64,000 nt of DNA from a virus, in the IMG/VR virus record IMGVR_UViG_3300045988_148900, positions 32,001-96,000 of that record; one strand, written 5' to 3'. Both the position numbers and the translations under genes were made by a program. The notes beneath the pieces are model-generated. The model saw only the letters and a program-made list of their open reading frames with translations. It was not told the origin of the DNA and searched no databases. Of this stretch, positions 4,096 through 42,724 are shown piece after piece; position 1 is the stretch's first letter; each line of letters opens with the position of its first letter.

Positions 4096-5007
4096 CTAAT
4101 CTACGCGCACAACGTCTAACTCGATATCCTGAACATCTCCACAAAAAGACGAACGATATCCTACACACACAAAATGCTGACCATCCGAACTACCGTCAAG
4201 GTAAGTACAAGAACCACCACAACACAACGTACCGCCAACAAGCTCAACACCCCGAAAAGTAAAACTACGACTCCGCAAGTAACTACGCCAGTAACCATTA
4301 CGACTCCGCCACTGACGATCCAAGCGCAACTCGTCATTCGACAAGTAACTCTTATAAACACCAACCAAACTCCCCGACGACCCAAAGGTCAGATCGACAC
4401 CATCCGAAACACCACCGTCGCCGTCCAAGTACATCCGAAGACGACCCGGAACGTCCGGCTCCGACAAACGACTCGTACTATAACTGTCATTACGACCCCG
4501 GAACCCGAAGCAACTCGGCATACCCCAAGACGCAAGCAAGTCACAATACATAAAGTCCCCACCAACGGTATAATGAAGAGTACTACACCCGCCACCACTG
4601 CAAGCTCCTCCAAGCGTCAACGTCTCGAACAAGTAAGAACCCCTAAGACGCCCGAAGCACCACCAATGACGAACAAGGCTACTCAAACTAGGAAGACTCC
4701 GAAAAGGCAAACCCAAAACGCTACAAACATCCGACAATGTATAGTCTCCGCAAACAGGCTGACGCAACATACCACACATCTTCCAGTAACCCTCCGGATA
4801 ACTCAGATAACGATACGAATTGACGCCCAAGACCTCTACGGAAACAACAACGTACCTACAACCAGTACCACGCCACTCCCAAACGTCGCCTCGAAGAAGA
4901 GTAGACAACTCCATCCAAACCTCGCTGCTGTAACGCCAAACACTCTCCCGGACGCCCCACCGAACAACAGGATACAAAACACCATCGCAATCTACTCGAA
5001 GATCCAT
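4096..5007 (-). CDS. hypothetical tail/baseplate-module protein
   Basis: 303 aa from ATG 5007. Trp/Cys/Tyr/Gly-rich, with no motif recognised. The call rests on context only. Confidence 0.55.
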   Translation of the reverse strand: MDLRVDCDGVLYPVVRWGVRESVWRYSSEVWMELSTLLRGDVWEWRGTGCRYVVVSVEVLGVNSYRYLSYPEGYWKMCGMLRQPVCGDYTLSDVCSVLGLPFRSLPSLSSLVRHWWCFGRLRGSYLFETLTLGGACSGGGCSTLHYTVGGDFMYCDLLASWGMPSCFGFRGRNDSYSTSRLSEPDVPGRLRMYLDGDGGVSDGVDLTFGSSGSLVGVYKSYLSNDELRLDRQWRSRNGYWRSYLRSRSFTFRGVELVGGTLCCGGSCTYLDGSSDGQHFVCVGYRSSFCGDVQDIELDVVRVD

Positions 5008-29761: not shown

Positions 29762-29851
29762 AGGTGATTATATACAATTTTACACTGCACATATTGGCGA
29801 TTCTACGACATCGTAACCTCCGTCTCCACGCCCGTCAAACCGTCCCACCGA
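29762..29851 (-). ncRNA. candidate omega-RNA 3' scaffold / right-end block of element A
   Basis: By my count, 83 of 90 nt are identical to 40246-40335 of element B. The next roughly 90 nt of coding sequence are visibly less conserved. In IS200/IS605 systems the omega-RNA overlaps the tnpB 3' end. Confidence 0.3.
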
Positions 29852-30958
29852 CGGCGATAATTTTGCTAATCCTTCTTTTAGAATATTGGTCGCGGCGGTA
29901 AGATCCCGATCATGGATCGTACCACATTGCGGACACGCCCATGTCCTATCACTTAACGTAAAGCCATCGTTCTTGTAACCGCAACATCCGCAGGTCTTAC
30001 TACTCGGAAAGAAACGGTCGATCTTCAAAACTGTCCTACCAAGCCAACGGGCCTTGTAATCCAAGACACGAACGAACTCAAACCAACAAATGTTTTGGAT
30101 GGATTCAGCTAAACTGTGATTACCCATCATACCTTTCACATTTAAGTCCTCGATAAAGACGGCTTGGTTCTCACCCAATATCGAGTTAACCGTATGATGG
30201 ATAAGATTATTAATCAAATTGCGTTTCTTAGCATACAGCTTATTAATTTTTAGCCTTATCTCCGAACGGCGGCGACTGCCTTTTTGTCGTCGTGATTCTA
30301 TCTTCTGCAACCGAGAGATACGACGGTCTATGACATCCGCGAAACGCGGATTAGGTATCTTCCGACCATCGGAGGTGACTATAAAGTCTTTTAAGCCTAA
30401 ATCAAGACCGACGCACTTGGACTGACTCGTGATGGGCTCCGGCTTTGGTTCTTGAACACCTGTCTCCACAAGACAACTCGCCCAAAAGCGTCCGCAACCG
30501 TCACAACTAACCGTAACATTCCTAAGCTGACCCTTAAACCGACGATCCTGCTTATACCTAACCAAACCGATCTTCGACAGTTTGACGTGACGACTATCCT
30601 GATCGACGCTGCAATGAGTGGAAGGAAATCTGCAAGATAGCTTACTCCAATGCTTCGTCTTGTGCTTCGGAAATCCTTGCTTCGTCTTGAAAAACATCTG
30701 GTAGGCACTACTCATGTCGCGTACTGACTGAACCAAACAGACAGCGGGTACATCATACAACCACCCGTACTCGGACTTCAAGCCCGTCATCAAATTGATA
30801 CATTCGAACTCCGATAACGAGGTCTTATCTGTCTCGTAAGCTTTGATCTTAGCATCCAACGTAGCATTATAAACATATCGACAACAACCGAACGTCTGAC
30901 GCAACAAAACCTGTTGTGTCTTATTGGGATAAAGTCGATATTTATAAGTGCGCTTCAT
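29780..30958 (-). CDS. tnpB: TnpB RNA-guided endonuclease (OrfB_IS605 + RuvC + Zn-ribbon)
   Basis: 392 aa. It begins MKRTYKYRLYPNKTQQ and carries the RuvC triad contexts VGLDLGLKDF, VFIEDLNVKGM and IHDRDLTAATNI, plus the zinc ribbon CGCCGY...CPQCG. Confidence 0.9.
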   Translation of the reverse strand: MKRTYKYRLYPNKTQQVLLRQTFGCCRYVYNATLDAKIKAYETDKTSLSEFECINLMTGLKSEYGWLYDVPAVCLVQSVRDMSSAYQMFFKTKQGFPKHKTKHWSKLSCRFPSTHCSVDQDSRHVKLSKIGLVRYKQDRRFKGQLRNVTVSCDGCGRFWASCLVETGVQEPKPEPITSQSKCVGLDLGLKDFIVTSDGRKIPNPRFADVIDRRISRLQKIESRRQKGSRRRSEIRLKINKLYAKKRNLINNLIHHTVNSILGENQAVFIEDLNVKGMMGNHSLAESIQNICWFEFVRVLDYKARWLGRTVLKIDRFFPSSKTCGCCGYKNDGFTLSDRTWACPQCGTIHDRDLTAATNILKEGLAKLSPSVGRFDGRGDGGYDVVESPICAV

Positions 30959-30962
30959 GCTA

Positions 30963-30970
30963 CAAATATA
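30963..30970 (-). promoter_or_regulatory. host-type -7 box TATATTTG upstream of tnpB (A)
   Basis: Minus strand reads TATATTTG-TAGC-ATG, which implies a leaderless or near-leaderless mRNA. Confidence 0.4.
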
Positions 30971-31076
30971 GTTATTTATTTACGTCTATGCAAGATGGTA
31001 GTGTAAAATTATATGTAGTCGCCATCTGAAAAACGAAGAGCAACACTCATAAGACAATCCTTTAATATCAACCTAC

Positions 31077-31493: not shown

Positions 31494-32711
31494 TTACTTT
31501 AACGCGCGGCGGAAATAATAACCCTTCGTAGGCGAATCTCTATCAAGACCATACGCTACTGTAGACAAACCAATACCCATAACTCGAGACGCCTCTGATA
31601 TAGATGGAAAAGACCCATATAAAGAACCATCTAAAGTAAAAACGTCAACGTCAGTAGACCAACCATAATGATCCTTCTTAATTGTATGTTTAAGCCTATT
31701 CATACTCGTGGCAGCCCGAGCAACACGATTCGATATATCCTCTGCAGACGCACCCGGAAAAGCCCAAAGATAACCTCCAGCTGACGCACGATCGCATGTA
31801 CCCTCCGCACAAAACATAATAGACGCATTATCGGCTCCAGAAGCAATAGAAGCCTGATGATACGATGGATAAGAAGCAACAAAAACACCGTCTAAAGTAT
31901 ACTGATTGACGGCAACCTTCGTGCGATGCAAACGCTTAGGCTCCCGCAAGACTCTAACAGGAATGTCAATGTCATCTCGACGCCACTGATAACCACCAGC
32001 TGACTGTAACTCTCCTCTTGCAGCCCGAGCTATAAGAGACGAATCAAAATTAATCAAACAACCTGCCTCTGCCATGCTAATATAGCTGCGAATAAATTTA
32101 CCCGACATGGAATACTGCGAAACGGAAATCGGCTGATTACTCTCTATTACTGAAATCTCCTCCGCAGACAACACACGCGCCGACTCGCCTGCCCAACGCC
32201 ACTGAAAACCATTATGTGCAGGACGAAGCCCTCTACAACACCGACAAATACTCGAATGATTGGAACCAGTCTGTGACGCGGCCTCCACCGCACTCTCGAA
32301 CTGACCAACCAAACGACCAGCATAGTCATACTGCCAAACAGCCTTGGCCCTAAGTAACCCTAATGCATGGCGATCCTCAGCGGACGCCGCGGCCCACGTA
32401 AAACCAATGCCTCCAGAAACTACATTGTAACCAAACGACGGATTAGTAGCCTTATAGAAATCAATAAAGTAAACCTCCTCATGGGCCAAAGAATCCAACA
32501 AACTGACCACATCATCCATCTCAAAACGACGTAGAACTCGATACTCCCAAAGCTCAGGAGAATACTTCTTACGAGCAGCAGCTACCCTAAACCCAGAATA
32601 AGAACCCGAACGAAACCAACATGCGCGACGTCTACGCTCATCGATAGTTATTCCAATATACACCTTCTCCTCCGGAGAAATGTACATATATACAACACCT
32701 CTGTACTGCAT
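31494..32711 (-). CDS. free-standing GIY-YIG homing endonuclease with repeated NUMOD/IENR-like modules
   Basis: 405 aa from ATG 32711. VVYMYISPEEKVYIGIT (GIY..YIG), HEEVYFI (Glu) and GYNVVSGG match the catalytic domain. C-terminal repeats end in GFQWRW, GYQWRR, GYLWAF and GYYFRR. Confidence 0.85.
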   Translation of the reverse strand: MQYRGVVYMYISPEEKVYIGITIDERRRRACWFRSGSYSGFRVAAARKKYSPELWEYRVLRRFEMDDVVSLLDSLAHEEVYFIDFYKATNPSFGYNVVSGGIGFTWAAASAEDRHALGLLRAKAVWQYDYAGRLVGQFESAVEAASQTGSNHSSICRCCRGLRPAHNGFQWRWAGESARVLSAEEISVIESNQPISVSQYSMSGKFIRSYISMAEAGCLINFDSSLIARAARGELQSAGGYQWRRDDIDIPVRVLREPKRLHRTKVAVNQYTLDGVFVASYPSYHQASIASGADNASIMFCAEGTCDRASAGGYLWAFPGASAEDISNRVARAATSMNRLKHTIKKDHYGWSTDVDVFTLDGSLYGSFPSISEASRVMGIGLSTVAYGLDRDSPTKGYYFRRALK

Positions 32712-38034: not shown

Positions 38035-38560
38035 CTAAGAACGCAAGTCAGCCAAGAAGTCATTAAGACCCGATAAATGATCATACTCGTCCGCCTGAAT
38101 CTCCTTAACCAGCCGCTCCGTCGTGTAGTCACCCAAATCCCGAGACAAATCAATAATCCGCTGATAATGACGAATAGCGCACTCCTCGGACTCGATATTC
38201 TGCTCCAGTATAGGAACGAGCTCCGAAACATTCTCCGGCGTGTGATACTCACACTCAGCTGTCGACTGAATATTGGCAAAGTCGAAAATGTGCGTCGGAA
38301 CATACTGAAGCTCATTCATACGATTGAGAAGCTTCACAAAATGATCATCAAGCTCATCTTTAGCTGTAGCATTGAAAAACTCCTCGATATTGGCTCGCTC
38401 CTGACCCACAAGATAAGGAGAGACGACACGATAAGCGTAAAAAGCGAGAATTTCTTCTGCCGCTGCAATTTCGAGCTCATTGCAAATAGACAGACGAGAC
38501 TCGTCGGGCAAAATATCATCTAACGAGTCGGAAATATACGAAGCAAAATCCCTGACCATA
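38035..38560 (-). CDS. ferritin-like four-helix-bundle protein (alternative: small terminase by position)
   Basis: 175 aa from ATG 38560, or GTG 38589. The Glu/His pattern ..NELEIAAAEE.., ..KDELDDHF.., ..ESEECAIRHY.., ..EIQADEYDHL.. resembles bacterioferritin di-iron ligands, though helix B is ExxxH rather than ExxH. Confidence 0.4.
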
Positions 38561-38601
38561 TTATAAAAAGATATATCCGGTAAACCCACATTGAATTTAC
38601 T

Positions 38602-38615
38602 GGATATATAATTGA
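38602..38615 (-). promoter_or_regulatory. conserved phage box, variant GGATATATAATTGA
   Basis: In the spacer between 38630-39430 and the next gene. It lies 41 nt from ATG 38560 and 12 nt from GTG 38589. Confidence 0.5.
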
Positions 38616-38629
38616 TTGTCCCATGCAAG

Positions 38630-39430
38630 CTACAGGTCGGCAAACTCGTCGAAATCCGACACACCACTCGACGCAGGAGTAGAACTAACAGACTCCGCAA
38701 CACCCGGAATCGACGAATCGAAGCCATCAATAACAGGAGGTTCCGGTAGAGTAATACCAGCCGGAGCAGGCTCCAAATAATCAGCAGGCTCATCAGTAGC
38801 CTTAGGCTCAATAGCATCCTGACGAGGAGCAACCGTCTTGCCTTTAGGCTTACGAACCTTCTCATCCGGAACCGCAGTAGTCGACGTGCCTACAACATCG
38901 GCAGGCTGCACAGCCGAGAATTCATCATAAGAAACATGATCCTCCGAATCAGCGGAACCAGCAGGAGCGTCGAAGCCATTCTCCGAACCAAACTCACGCT
39001 CAATAATAGCTACGAAACGATCCTTCTCCTCACGAGTCTTGAGACTCGAGAAAAGAGCAAGCAACCGACGATCCTCAGGAGAGAACGTGTCCTCAGGGAA
39101 CAACGACTTGCCCTGAGCAATCTTAGCCTCCAACTTCACAACCTCAAGAACGCGCTTCATGAGAATGTCGTACTCAACAGAACACTCCACACGAGTAAGC
39201 GTAGGCAACTCCTCAACAAGAAGAGTGTTGTAACGCTCATCCAAAGCACGCATCAAAGACATGCTCTCCTCAGCCATACTATGCATCTTCTGCAACGCAG
39301 AACAAGCCATAGTAGAGACCCCAAGCTGAACCGCCCGAAGCGCAACTCCCTGAGCCTGCTCGGACTCCATACCAAGACGTACCAACTGCTCCAAGTTCAT
39401 AACAGGAGCCAAAGACTTATTATCCTCCAT
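38630..39430 (-). CDS. hypothetical protein with acidic C-terminal half
   Basis: 266 aa, ATG 39430. Confidence 0.5.
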   Translation of the reverse strand: MEDNKSLAPVMNLEQLVRLGMESEQAQGVALRAVQLGVSTMACSALQKMHSMAEESMSLMRALDERYNTLLVEELPTLTRVECSVEYDILMKRVLEVVKLEAKIAQGKSLFPEDTFSPEDRRLLALFSSLKTREEKDRFVAIIEREFGSENGFDAPAGSADSEDHVSYDEFSAVQPADVVGTSTTAVPDEKVRKPKGKTVAPRQDAIEPKATDEPADYLEPAPAGITLPEPPVIDGFDSSIPGVAESVSSTPASSGVSDFDEFADL

Positions 39431-39439
39431 GAAAAAAAA

Positions 39440-40000
39440 CTAAATATTATTGCAAAAATCTACCATCATATCCAAAACAGCCTCCGTAGCCTCCAACTCC
39501 GACTGTCGCTTATGAAGACCACGCTGGCAAAACACAAGCAACGACGGCACTAAACGCCGCGGAACATCAATACGTGAGAAACCAGCATCGCCAGAAAGAT
39601 AAGGAAGCAAATCGGAAAGCTCCGACGGTACAATCTCCGGAACCTTACCCTTCGACGGCGAAACAGACTCAAGCCTATCTTCACGGTTCAATCTACGTAA
39701 CAAATTGCCAGCCTCATTGCGAATCATCGTATAAAGATAATTATACGGTGACATCGACTTATCGAAACGATCGTGACGCTCCATAATAGTCATCAAAGCC
39801 TGACTACGCAAATCGTCAAAGTCCTGATAATACTTGCCAAAGTGAGTATTCAAAACAATACTGATAACCTTGTGAATCTCGTCAAGCTCCCGAGACGTAA
39901 CCTCAGAAACAGGATGAAGATAAAACTGAAGAAGTATCTTCTTATCTATCGCAACACGAGCGGTAGAAGAACTGACAAGTATCTCTGACGAATCACACAT
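39440..40000 (-). CDS. late-transcription sigma factor, T4 gp55-like (sigma-70 region 2 only)
   Basis: 186 aa. RFDKSMSPYNYLYTMIRNEAGNLLRRLNRE parallels my recollection of T4 gp55 ([32 protein letters not shown]) and generic sigma region 2. Confidence 0.55.
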   Translation of the reverse strand: MCDSSEILVSSSTARVAIDKKILLQFYLHPVSEVTSRELDEIHKVISIVLNTHFGKYYQDFDDLRSQALMTIMERHDRFDKSMSPYNYLYTMIRNEAGNLLRRLNREDRLESVSPSKGKVPEIVPSELSDLLPYLSGDAGFSRIDVPRRLVPSLLVFCQRGLHKRQSELEATEAVLDMMVDFCNNI

Positions 40001-40245
40001 GGCTGTAGTAACTTTTTAAGTAATCCAAAACTCGAAAACGTGTGGTCCTATCAGCTAAAGGCCACCAATAAACACACTTCAACTCCTCTTTATGAACATG
40101 AGGCTTACATCGGTAATCTACAGTAGTCCACGTGCGGGGCTTGAATGAACTCGTAAGATGCGGACGTGTAAACTCCTCTATGACATCGGACGTCTTTAAC
40201 AACGACGGCAACCAAAAAGGCCGTGTATCATCAAAAGATAAACAC
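39993..40245 (-). pseudogene. 3' fragment (83 codons) of a phage gene split by TnpB element B
   Basis: The frame continues from 41509-41675 once 40246-41508 (1263 = 3 x 421 nt) is removed. The track ORF 39993-40319 borrows an ATG and 25 codons from inside the element. Confidence 0.55.
40240..40245. repeat. putative 6-bp target-site duplication AAACAC (left copy)
   Basis: aaacac lies immediately outside the left TIR of element B. The same hexamer is at 41509-41514, outside the right TIR. Confidence 0.5.
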
Positions 40246-40335
40246 AGGTGATTATATACAATTCTACACTGCACATATTGGCGTTTCATCGACTTCGTAA
40301 CCTCCGTCTCCACGCCCATCGAACCGTCCCACCGA
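40246..40335 (-). ncRNA. candidate omega-RNA 3' scaffold / right-end block of element B
   Basis: 83 of 90 nt are identical to 29762-29851, although the two TnpB proteins differ at about 12% of residues. Confidence 0.3.
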
Positions 40336-41442
40336 CGGCAAAAACATCGCTAAACCCTCTCTCAAAATGTTGCTGGCGGCATTTAAGTCTCGGTCGTGGA
40401 CCGTACCACATTGTGGACACGCCCAAGTCCTATTGCCTAACGTAAGACCGTCGTTCTTGTAGCCGCAACACCCACAGGTCTTGCTACTCGGGAAGAAACG
40501 GTCGATCTTTAAAACCGTCTTACCCAACCAACGCGCCTTATATTCCAAGACACGAACGAACTCAAACCAACATACACTCTGGATGGATTTAGCTAATCTA
40601 TGGTTACCCATCATGCCCTTAACATTCAAGTCCTCGATAAAAATGGCTTGGTTCTCACCTAAAATACCGTTGACTGCATGATGGATAAAGTTATGAATTA
40701 AATTACGTTTCTTAGCATATAGTTTATTGATTTTTAATCTTATCTCCGCACGGCGACGACTGCCTTTCTGTCGTCTTGCTTCTATTTTCTGCAAGCGGGA
40801 TATCCGACGATCGATGACGTCCGCGAAACGCGGATTAGGTATCTTGCGACCGTCGGAGGTAACCACAAAGTCCTTCAAACCCAAGTCCAGCCCGACACAC
40901 TTGGACTGGCTTGTGATAGGCGTGGGTTTAAGCTCAGGAACACCCGTCTCGACAAGGCAACTCACCCAAAAGAGTCCGCAGCCGTCGCAACTTACCGTGA
41001 CGTTACGTAACTGACCCGCAAACCGACGATCCTGCTTATAGCGTACTAAACCAATCTTCGATAGTTTGATGTGACTACTTTCCTGATCGACACCACAATG
41101 GGTGGACGGAAAACGACATGATAGCTTGCTCCGATGCTTCGACTTAAACCTTGGAAAACCCTGATGCGTCCGGAAAAACATCCGGTAAGCACTATACATA
41201 TCTCGAACCGACTGAACCAAACAAACCGCAGGAACGTCATACAACCATGCGTACTCGGACTTCAGGCCCGTCATCAAGTTAATACATTCGAACTCCGACA
41301 AGGACGTCTTATCTGTCTTGTAAGCCTTAATCTTAATATCAAGCGTAGCATTATAAACAAACCGACAACAACCGAACGTCTGACGCAACATTGCCTGCTG
41401 CGTCTTGTTCGGATAAAGCCGATATTTATAAGCACGCTTCAT
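40264..41442 (-). CDS. tnpB: TnpB RNA-guided endonuclease (paralog of 29780-30958)
   Basis: 392 aa, the same length as copy A. The RuvC contexts VGLDLGLKDF, IFIEDLNVKGM and VHDRDLNAASNI are intact, as is the Zn ribbon CGCCGY...CPQCG. Confidence 0.9.
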   Translation of the reverse strand: MKRAYKYRLYPNKTQQAMLRQTFGCCRFVYNATLDIKIKAYKTDKTSLSEFECINLMTGLKSEYAWLYDVPAVCLVQSVRDMYSAYRMFFRTHQGFPRFKSKHRSKLSCRFPSTHCGVDQESSHIKLSKIGLVRYKQDRRFAGQLRNVTVSCDGCGLFWVSCLVETGVPELKPTPITSQSKCVGLDLGLKDFVVTSDGRKIPNPRFADVIDRRISRLQKIEARRQKGSRRRAEIRLKINKLYAKKRNLIHNFIHHAVNGILGENQAIFIEDLNVKGMMGNHRLAKSIQSVCWFEFVRVLEYKARWLGKTVLKIDRFFPSSKTCGCCGYKNDGLTLGNRTWACPQCGTVHDRDLNAASNILREGLAMFLPSVGRFDGRGDGGYEVDETPICAV

Positions 41443-41446
41443 ATCA

Positions 41447-41454
41447 CAAAGATA
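41447..41454 (-). promoter_or_regulatory. host-type -7 box TATCTTTG upstream of tnpB (B)
   Basis: Minus strand reads TATCTTTG-TGAT-ATG. Confidence 0.4.
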
Positions 41455-41508
41455 GTTATTTATTTACATCTATGCAAGACGGTAGTGTAAAATTGTATGT
41501 AATCACCT

Positions 41509-41675
41509 AAACACAAACCAATACGCTGATGCGTAGTGTAATAATGCTCCGCGCGACATATCCAACGACATATAATCCTCCGCCGCCAACTACCAACACC
41601 ACTCAGAATACTCCAAACTATCCTCTTCATCTCACCTATGACAACCTTAACTTTTGACTGTATAAATCCCTCCAA
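41509..41675 (-). pseudogene. 5' fragment (~55 codons) of the phage gene split by TnpB element B
   Basis: The frame opens at TTG 41675 (ATG at 41630) and runs straight into the element at 41508. It is in frame with 39993-40245 after excision. Confidence 0.5.
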
Positions 41676-41701: not shown

Positions 41702-42724
41702 CTACCTATTTCCAGACCGCGTGCTCACAGTACGCTCTATTAACGACCTAAGCAAAACTTCAACACCTACCTCCGACCCCAAAGCCTGCTGAGCCAAAGG
41801 AGAAAAGAAGAACCCAAACAGAGTCTTACCCAAACCTGCCTTCTGAAGCCGAAACTCAACAGAACCCTCATCAGTAGTAGCGTAAATATTACGCAACAAC
41901 AAACCAACGGACATCCGAACATCTATAGTCGGATACAACAGCAACTCCGAAAGAAGAGACGACGGATCTGTACCCCCAGACTTCGAAAAGCAAGCAACAA
42001 TGAAATCACGGAACTTGAAGTAAGAACTATCCAAAGCACGCGGACCCGCAAGCTCATAGAACTGAAGAAGCTGAAGAGCATTACGCATATGACCCTCCGA
42101 CTTCATAGCCAAAATGTGAAGCTCGTCCGCAGACAACCGAGTACCACGACTCGCAGCGATCTTAGCAACATGAGCCTCAACCAACGGAAGAGGAATAGTA
42201 CTAATGTCGATATTCACACACCGAGACTTCAAAGTAGGCGAAATATCCTCCGTACCACAAAACATGAAAATAGTATTAGGAACACCCTCCTCAACCGTCT
42301 TCAAAAGAGCATCACTACTACTACGAGAAATGGCCTGAACCTCGTCCAAGACCACAACACGACGCCCTTCCGGCACTACCATAAGCTGCTCCTTAAGACG
42401 TCTAATCCCCTCAATATTGCCCACAACCGTACCATCAAGCTCCCAGTAAAGACTCGAGTTGGACGCAGAAGCCTCCTGACACCCAGCACACGCATTACAA
42501 ACGTCGTCCTTGTGCTTAAACTCCGTACAATTCATAGCTCTGCCAAAAATACGAGCTATGCTTGACTTCCCTGAACCGAAGCTTCCCTTCAAAAACAAGG
42601 CCCGGGCTGCAATCCCGTCAGCATGGGCTATACGCTTCAGAGTCGTAACAGCCAAATCCTGACCAACCATCTCGCCAAAGGTCTTCGGCCTATACAAATT
42701 AGCTAAATTCTGATCCTGCGCCAT
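41702..42724 (-). CDS. clamp-loader AAA+ ATPase, DnaX (gamma/tau)-like
   Basis: It has Walker A GSFGSGKSS, the zinc module CNACAGC, Walker B VVVLDEVQ, sensor-1 FMFCGTE and the SRC motif (TLKSRCVNI). Confidence 0.7.
   Translation of the reverse strand: MAQDQNLANLYRPKTFGEMVGQDLAVTTLKRIAHADGIAARALFLKGSFGSGKSSIARIFGRAMNCTEFKHKDDVCNACAGCQEASASNSSLYWELDGTVVGNIEGIRRLKEQLMVVPEGRRVVVLDEVQAISRSSSDALLKTVEEGVPNTIFMFCGTEDISPTLKSRCVNIDISTIPLPLVEAHVAKIAASRGTRLSADELHILAMKSEGHMRNALQLLQFYELAGPRALDSSYFKFRDFIVACFSKSGGTDPSSLLSELLLYPTIDVRMSVGLLLRNIYATTDEGSVEFRLQKAGLGKTLFGFFFSPLAQQALGSEVGVEVLLRSLIERTVSTRSGNR

Follow-up and report, generated by a model that had tools for sequence, protein, structure and literature searches.

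How does a gene for TnpB, a nuclease of the kind from which Cas12 descends, come to stand between terminal inverted repeats (TIRs) and a target-site duplication in the middle of a phage gene? In prokaryotes TnpB is regarded as belonging almost exclusively to elements of the IS605 and IS607 types, with scarless excision. The question is raised by a stretch of 64,000 nucleotides (positions 32,001 to 96,000 of the IMG/VR virus record IMGVR_UViG_3300045988_148900; hereafter the window, whose own numbering is used unless a locus number such as L008 is given), in which an element at 40247-41507 interrupts the gene for a 137-amino acid (aa) protein. It is likely that this element is a non-autonomous member of a phage-borne group of IS1595-family transposons, inserted by a DDE transposase that was supplied in trans. 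A first-pass annotation had proposed either mobilization by a DDE-type transposase acting in trans or an undescribed type of TnpB transposon. The former is supported by ends and 8-bp duplications that the element has in common with elements encoding an IS1595 transposase; the latter fares poorly, DDE-associated, TIR-bounded TnpBs having been described already (PMC10691335).

Ends of the element and its empty sites

The element and its borders consist of the following features.

40247-41507, minus strand: probable non-autonomous transposable element, 1261 bp, with tnpB and a predicted guide-RNA scaffold within IS1595-type TIRs
40247-40270, no strand assigned: TIR at the tnpB 3' end, from the repeat finder and pattern match
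41484-41507, no strand assigned: TIR at the tnpB 5' end, within the 65-nt leader before the tnpB ATG
40239-40246, no strand assigned: target-site duplication on the tnpB 3' side, TAAACACA on the plus strand and TGTGTTTA in gene orientation
41508-41515, no strand assigned: target-site duplication on the tnpB 5' side, the identical 8-mer TAAACACA

The first letters of the element are GGTGATTA and its last letters TAATCACC. The longest inverted repeat of the region, placed by the repeat finder at 40246-40270 and 41484-41508 (25 nt, 92% complementary), is 24-25 nt long and lies exactly at the element ends, where the terminal-repeat pattern also matches at 40247-40269 on the plus strand and 41485-41507 on the minus strand. 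The 24 of 28 matching positions from which a 28-nt repeat had been read in the first-pass annotation were reproduced. In the 64-kb window the 23-nt degenerate repeat occurs four times, against 0.00 expected from shuffles, and these occurrences are both ends of the 40247-41507 element and both ends of a second copy:

29763-31023, minus strand: second copy of the element, 83% nucleotide identity, with tnpB at 29780-30958; intergenic and without a flanking duplication

The earlier limits of 40246-41508 (1263 nt) were right in treating the element as a discrete insertion, and the better fit is 40247-41507, or 1261 bp; L099, an independently delimited copy, has the identical length of 1261 bp. Likewise, the hexamer AAACAC that had been noted on both flanks is present at 40240-40245 and 41509-41514, and the true duplication is 8 bp, not 6. 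When the two flanks were compared with empty-site alleles by BLAST, the alignments shared exactly 8 nt, and the empty-site alleles are without precisely 40247-41507 plus one 8-mer.

Deletion of the element with one copy of the direct repeat yields the 137-aa open reading frame (ORF) exactly as it had been quoted, and the search for uninterrupted alleles recommended at that stage found the restored ORF contiguous in six related gut-phage contigs. Two IMG/VR contigs (L004, L005) encode an uninterrupted 137-aa protein with 86-87% identity, and a third (L001) has the intact gene plus two tandem paralogs. A junction scan of JGI/ENA metagenomes gave three further contiguous alleles from the human gut, all in relatives about 94% identical, and for two of them this 94% identity with the window extends over 1.2 kb across the site; none of these three metagenome empty sites is a same-strain allele carrying the window-specific flank. 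All six empty sites read ...TTGG(T/C)TTGTGTTTATC..., and in each the 8-mer (TGTGTTTA) is present just once, precisely where the two flanks join. Moreover, the open frames that flank the element are not compositional artefacts, a concern raised beforehand, as a protein search returned eight intact homologs of 122-152 aa, none with an annotation.

A terminus shared with transposase-bearing elements

The terminus is by no means peculiar to this element. The 20-nt terminal pattern GGTGATTAYATRYAAYTYTA is matched exactly in at least 120 stretches of IMG/VR, and the repeat GGTGATTATATACAAYTTTACAC common to them lies mostly in phage contigs of 80-160 kb and for the most part not beside a TnpB of the window family. 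The first-pass annotation had advised looking for further copies of the TIR and for a transposase gene bounded by it, and both were found in IMG/VR phage contigs. Elements of 2.8-5.5 kb with the same terminus encode a 307-aa DDE transposase of the IS1595 family (ISXO2-like DDE domain PF12762, E=3e-42; IS1595 equivalog NF033547, E=7e-57) together with variable cargo. At L045, L065, L119, L173, L175, L182, L189, L203 and L213-L221 the transposase gene lies between copies of the 20-nt terminus that have 0-4 mismatches; it is 256-275 nt from one repeat in most elements and about 1.1 kb from it in a few. The IS1595-type transposase occurs in 237 stretches of IMG/VR, and several phage contigs (among them 3300014572_000003, 3300045988_084605 and 3300045988_077290) carry both transposase-bearing elements and TnpB-only or miniature ones.

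Duplications are found across this group. Perfect 8/8-bp duplications flank 14 unique insertions that have no transposase and 14 transposase-bearing elements (including L119/L175, L173, L182, L189, L203, seven of L213-L221, and L231), for a total of 28 unique insertions. The transposase-bearing elements behave as small cargo transposons of phage genomes. Passengers vary among those at L173, L182, L214 and L231, where predicted lipoproteins and a Bro-N/KilAC-like protein are seen.

The same terminus also bounds TnpB elements other than those closest to the window copy. It encloses elements of 1347 bp and about 1320 bp, each with a TnpB of another lineage (41% identical to one another and 21-22% to the window TnpB), as well as elements of about 1325 bp whose TnpB is 45% identical to that of the window, and it is found around elements related to TnpBs of 41-44% identity, for example L070, L083 and L110. 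The TnpBs that share the terminus form two deeply divergent clades, with 21-26% identity between and 41-45% within them. There are, in addition, miniature elements of 183 bp and further derivatives ranging from 51 to 452 bp. The 183-bp elements (L024 2637-2819, L027, L077 5242-5424 and many more) have the same TIRs, perfect 8-bp duplications and, beside one repeat, a sequence resembling the guide scaffold (hairpin CCGG...CCGG, CGTGGAGA, GAAGCGTGAAAATATG...); judged by this resemblance they may be carriers of guide RNA that have no TnpB. At L109 (5924-5974) a 51-bp unit consists of two TIRs face to face with a spacer of about 10 nt, which could be a minimal element or the remnant of an excision or deletion.

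The nearest relatives of the window element give a less uniform picture. Close TnpB relatives (82-92% identity) are encoded at eight loci in four related IMG/VR contigs, besides the second copy in the window, and these nine other copies are 80-89% identical in DNA. At six of these eight loci the repeats mark the precise limits within which the DNA resembles the window element. It had been asked whether other copies keep the TIRs and the duplications: both repeats are kept at six of the eight other close-copy loci, and no close copy besides that at 40247-41507 is flanked by a duplication. Because of this, the close-copy subfamily gives one clean signature of transposition. All ten tnpB genes of the close copies are intact.

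Several observations weigh against an insertion by a transposase acting in trans, or against the homing step that we consider below. No IS1595 transposase is encoded in the 64-kb window, and the best 80 of the 237 transposase loci include none from the four closest IMG/VR relatives; nor does any of the TIR-bounded elements examined have both a transposase and TnpB. Among the ten closest-copy loci, which represent eight distinct insertion sites, a duplication is found at the 40247-41507 copy only, and the 5' repeat is degenerate or missing at L008, L009 and L010. Comparison with empty sites in sister genomes reveals that 13-17 nt of target, immediately before the ATG of a gene, gave way to the insertions at L008 (2935-4197) and L009 (2251-3513); at L009 the element end provides the A and the T of the ATG of the adjoining gene. 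With regard to homing, the 5 nt before the 8-mer are here TGGTT, which differs from TTGAT, the target-adjacent motif (TAM) of ISDra2. Finally, a review has argued that TnpB brings little benefit to cut-and-paste DDE elements (PMC13565253).

Copies that have no duplication, or whose repeats have decayed, fit either secondary rearrangement or homing with imprecise repair, and those that combine a decayed 5' repeat with a tnpB under selection suggest retention or spread independent of a transposase. As for the window copy, mobilization in trans is the best reading because the window is without an IS1595 transposase, yet the ends of the element are shared with transposase elements; we infer it from these shared ends and from the duplications.

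TnpB, its predicted guide RNA and alternative origins

The coding and RNA features within the element are two.

40264-41442, minus strand: tnpB gene, 392 aa, ISDra2-like RNA-guided nuclease, from Pfam, NCBIfam and PDB matches
40247-40338, minus strand: predicted omega RNA scaffold, 3' part, with four helices overlapping the last ~25 codons of tnpB

The protein has the domains HTH_OrfB_IS605 (PF12323), OrfB_IS605 (PF01385) and Cas12f1-like_TNB (PF07282), matches the NCBIfam model guided_TnpB with E=5e-97, and aligns end to end with the structures of ISDra2 TnpB (PDB 8exa, 8h1j; E=1e-67). The RuvC motifs DLG (~185), EDL (~271) and DRD (~350) are kept, and the zinc finger CxxC...CxxC is also aligned. 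The ratio of nonsynonymous to synonymous divergence (dN/dS) is 0.07-0.12 among the close copies, indicating purifying selection, and by these features the window TnpB looks functional.

The stop codon of tnpB lies 18 nt from the element end, and when copies are compared the final ~95 nt of the element are far better conserved than the remainder. Over tnpB codons 361-392 (40264-40360) synonymous divergence is 0.04-0.34, compared with 0.43-1.4 in the core of the gene, a drop to be expected if a constrained RNA overlaps this part of the coding region. In an alignment of 12 copies the four-helix model comprises 24 pairs, of which 97.6% are paired, with compensatory changes in four pairs; none of 500 shuffles attained the observed covariation score, and slid controls paired at 20-51%. 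The fourth helix pairs 40268-40277 with 40253-40262, and the 3' TIR supplies its loop, its whole 3' arm and, of its 5' arm, the 3 nt nearest the loop, plus the ATCACC tail. Since helix 4 lies in large part inside the 3' TIR, this sequence belongs at once to a transposon end and to the predicted RNA scaffold. Similarity among the copies stops right after ...ATCACCT, where the guide would start, and the flank is variable beyond; the predicted guide, read from 40246 downwards, is TGTGTTTATCTTTTGATGAT. At seven loci of two other TnpB subfamilies (L043, L046, L048, L057, L058, L137 and L140) the motif T[TA]TAA often precedes the 8-bp duplication in an A/T-rich context, and it could be a TAM of TnpB or merely the preference of the transposase for A/T-rich targets.

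The mechanism that we propose would run as follows. The ~24-nt TIRs are kept as candidate binding sites of the transposase, and tnpB with its predicted 3' guide-RNA scaffold is carried in place of a transposase gene. An IS1595-family transposase, which might come from another element in the same phage, from a co-infecting phage or from the host, would cleave the target in a staggered manner, so that 8 bp (TGTGTTTA) in the 137-aa gene were duplicated. Transcription out of the 3' end would yield the guide TGTGTTTATCTTTTGA..., that is, the duplicated 8-mer and the downstream flank, which is the sequence of the uninterrupted allele. TnpB might then cut related phages free of the element in mixed infections, with the element being copied in by recombinational repair, and its cutting could also restore the element after excision. 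Spread and restoration guided by TnpB have been shown for IS605 elements, as summarised in PMC13565253, and their application to phage co-infection is an extension of that.

The protein taken by itself would suit an ordinary TnpB-only element of the IS200/IS605 family (IS1341-type), moved as single-stranded DNA by a Y1 TnpA and bearing its repeats by accident. The TnpB is typical of the IS605 clade and ISDra2-like, and most close copies are without a duplication. We nevertheless regard such an origin as very improbable: the ends are a 24-25-nt inverted repeat in common with DDE elements, not asymmetric subterminal hairpins, no conserved target motif is shared 5' of the close copies, and the 8-bp duplication was verified at six empty sites, whereas elements of the IS200/IS605 family have no TIRs and make no target duplications (PMC13565253, section 5.1), a premise on which the first-pass annotation was correct. 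Ends of the IS607 (serine recombinase) type were rejected, the terminal GG/CC being inverted, not direct, and a duplication being present. The contribution of the 3' repeat to a conserved RNA helix, and the great abundance of the repeat in these phages, would also agree with its having chiefly a regulatory or RNA-structural role in the phage, with tnpB as a chance neighbour, and not being a site recognized by a transposase. This can be given very little credence, in that the repeat occurs nearly always as inverted pairs that bound discrete insertions, 28 of them with perfect 8-bp duplications, and one paired class encodes the IS1595 transposase.

It is no more credible that the element is an IStron-like intron whose removal from the mRNA lets the 137-aa protein still be made, its frame-preserving length being a reflection of this. 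The insertion lengthens the gene by a multiple of three, the ends of the element are able to pair as RNA, and viable phages with the insertion occur in several samples; but Rfam, searched with the whole window at the gathering score and with the locus at E<=1, returned no family, be it a group I or group II intron or a curated guide RNA, the 65 nt before tnpB are too short for a ribozyme, and the frame would be kept by chance in one of three insertions and in any case meets a stop 15 codons into the element. That this copy did not transpose in this lineage, and was instead acquired during co-infection from a phage with the element already at the site, by homing through TnpB or by general recombination, is unlikely as well. 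Orthologous insertions in diverged phages (the 29763-31023 copy with L011 and L123; L006 with L013) speak for it, as do the occurrence of the insertion allele in at least seven contigs and at least two samples, and the selection on TnpB and guide scaffold even where the repeats have decayed. However, homing spreads only an existing insertion, the 8-bp duplication still needs an original event of the DDE type at the site, and all six related contigs that extend across the site are without the element there.

Beyond insertion by a DDE transposase acting in trans lies a broader and much more tentative proposal. It is possible, and in our view rather doubtful as yet, that human-gut phages host a large and so far unreported transposon group in which one IS1595-type terminus serves two TnpB clades and scaffold-only miniatures, the 3' TIR doubles as transposase site and guide helix, and the DDE transposase makes new insertions, each of which TnpB, as a homing nuclease, spreads in populations of co-infecting phages. 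If true, this would be a division of labour between DDE transposition to new sites and programmable homing by TnpB, not yet shown for any prokaryotic DDE transposon.

The interrupted gene, known relatives and significance

The element separates two fragments of the phage gene, which lie between a clamp-loader gene and a sigma-like gene.

41516-41675, minus strand: N-terminal fragment of the 137-aa phage gene, from intact homologs
39993-40238, minus strand: C-terminal fragment of the 137-aa phage gene, from intact homologs
39440-40000, minus strand: downstream gene with sigma-70 region 2, from a Sigma70_r2 domain match
41702-42724, minus strand: upstream clamp-loader gene, from domain and PHROG searches

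The insertion adds 1269 nt (3 x 423), and the reading frame is kept under either definition of the boundaries. The gene had been described as split in frame, which holds for the inserted length as a multiple of three; it is of no consequence, because the upstream frame, running from the N-terminal fragment through the 8-mer into the element, stops after 15 codons. Similarly, the stop of the 137-aa gene (39993-39995) does overlap the downstream gene, whose ATG is at 39998-40000 (ATGTGTGA), and we infer that the parent gene of the C-terminal fragment is translationally coupled to it; the description of the downstream gene as a gp55-like late sigma factor goes further than its sigma-70 region 2, and it has no PHROG match. 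The chimeric ORF that had been predicted from the ATG at 40319, inside the element, to 39993 exists and is called as a gene in public assemblies, whereas its expression and the altered late-gene timing suggested in the first-pass annotation are speculative. Its 108-aa product in the insertion allele (P0008) is borne by seven contigs from at least two samples, and because the allele recurs in this way, the insertion allele is a circulating, viable phage variant.

The 137-aa protein has no match in PHROGs or Pfam, its family is restricted to this phage group in protein searches, and GenBank phages gave no match to the 6-kb region by megablast or to the fused ORF by tblastn. The consequence at the locus is modest, in that what the insertion disrupts is a small accessory gene ahead of the sigma-like one, and the lineage is still found in several samples. 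In phage 3300045988_143886 (L001, 7000-8700) three tandem paralogs of the 137-aa gene stand between the clamp loader and the sigma-like gene. A ferritin/rubrerythrin-like gene (PF00210; window ~38035-38667), unusual as phage cargo, is called downstream of a 266-aa ORF and lies two genes downstream of the sigma-like gene.

The host is weakly indicated to be a member of the Bacteroidales. In bacterial genomes the 20-nt terminus has 27 matches, about the number estimated for chance, and the only real relatives are two contigs (L152, L167) in a rabbit-gut Muribaculaceae metagenome-assembled genome (Lapin-011 bin11), where a TnpB element 60-62% identical to that of the window has the same terminus. 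These contigs share stretches of 78-98% identical DNA with the window and are probably phage DNA and a weak host clue. In the tnpB leader (41443-41483) TATCTTTG precedes the ATG by 6 nt, with CTTG about another 25 nt upstream, and similar motifs (TTTGTACTATG) are found ahead of phage genes at the sites of L008 and L009. The promoter consensus of the Bacteroidota is TTTG ... TAnnTTTG, and these promoter-like motifs are a hint of a Bacteroidales host. At L011 (~4190-4225) and L123 (4885-4924) the element closes, on the tnpB 3' side, with three tandem copies of its terminal 10 nt (GGTGATTATA / TATAATCACC), an arrangement not present in the window.

TnpB proteins associated with DDE transposases form six branches (DDE-1 to DDE-6), all with inverted terminal repeats and with the 3' end of tnpB near (within 250 bp of) the transposon end, and solo TnpBs carry the ends of transposase-bearing elements, implying mobilization in trans (Altae-Tran et al., 2023, section 9; PMC10691335). 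The window element resembles them in its symmetrical TIRs, in the 18 nt between the tnpB stop and its end, and in being a solo copy. It is set apart by the type of partner: the DDE partners named in that paper and in a 2026 review are IS630, ISL2 and IS1031 (PMC10691335; PMC13565253), whereas here the partner is of the IS1595 family with 8-bp duplications, no examined element has both genes, and two TnpB clades and guide-scaffold miniatures stand on one terminus in large human-gut phage genomes. No paper connecting TnpB with IS1595 came up in a full-text search of the literature for the two. The kind of element is not new since 2023; this member stands out by the IS1595 partner, the phage setting, the unusual abundance and the miniature relatives with a guide scaffold.

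Members of the IS1595 family make A/T-rich 8-bp duplications (PMC12561309; PMC10045372). Like the insertion sequences of that family and their passenger-carrying relatives, such as ISApl4 (PMC12561309), the window element has TIRs that start with GG and an A/T-rich 8-bp duplication, and its group has variable passengers and autonomous members whose DDE transposase bears an N-terminal zinc ribbon; unlike them, it has no transposase and tnpB as its sole gene. With the IS1341 group of IS200/IS605 (ISDra2) it shares the TnpB protein and a guide scaffold that overlaps the 3' end of tnpB up to the element boundary, but it has TIRs and an 8-bp duplication, whereas IS605 elements have subterminal hairpins and insert seamlessly 3' of a fixed target motif of 4-5 nt. 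Passenger-carrying relatives of IS1595 insertion sequences were reportedly treated, along with the family itself, by Siguier et al. in 2009, and in eukaryotes IS1595 has its relatives in the Merlin transposons. A link of Merlin with the IS1016 group is cited in PMC10045372. Fanzor1 is likewise a TnpB-family nuclease carried as passenger in eukaryotic DDE transposons that are bounded by TIRs and generate duplications (PMC3627910), although its partners are Mariner, hAT, MuDR and similar elements, and here we deal with a prokaryotic virus, a short ISDra2-like TnpB and an IS1595 partner. Miniature inverted-repeat transposable elements are comparable in being non-autonomous, with the repeats of an autonomous element, flanking duplications and need of a transposase in trans; the window element differs from them in that it is not miniature and is coding, with a nuclease gene under selection and a predicted guide RNA.

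DDE partners of TnpB have been treated as rare and of doubtful benefit (PMC13565253). In the phages described here the partnership of IS1595 and TnpB is abundant (at least 120 terminus stretches and 237 transposase stretches in IMG/VR) and confined to large gut-phage genomes. With insertion and empty-site alleles side by side, these phages offer a system in which to ask if a cut-and-paste transposon profits from TnpB, how a guide starting with the target duplication is used, and whether in mixed infections TnpB serves phages as a homing nuclease.

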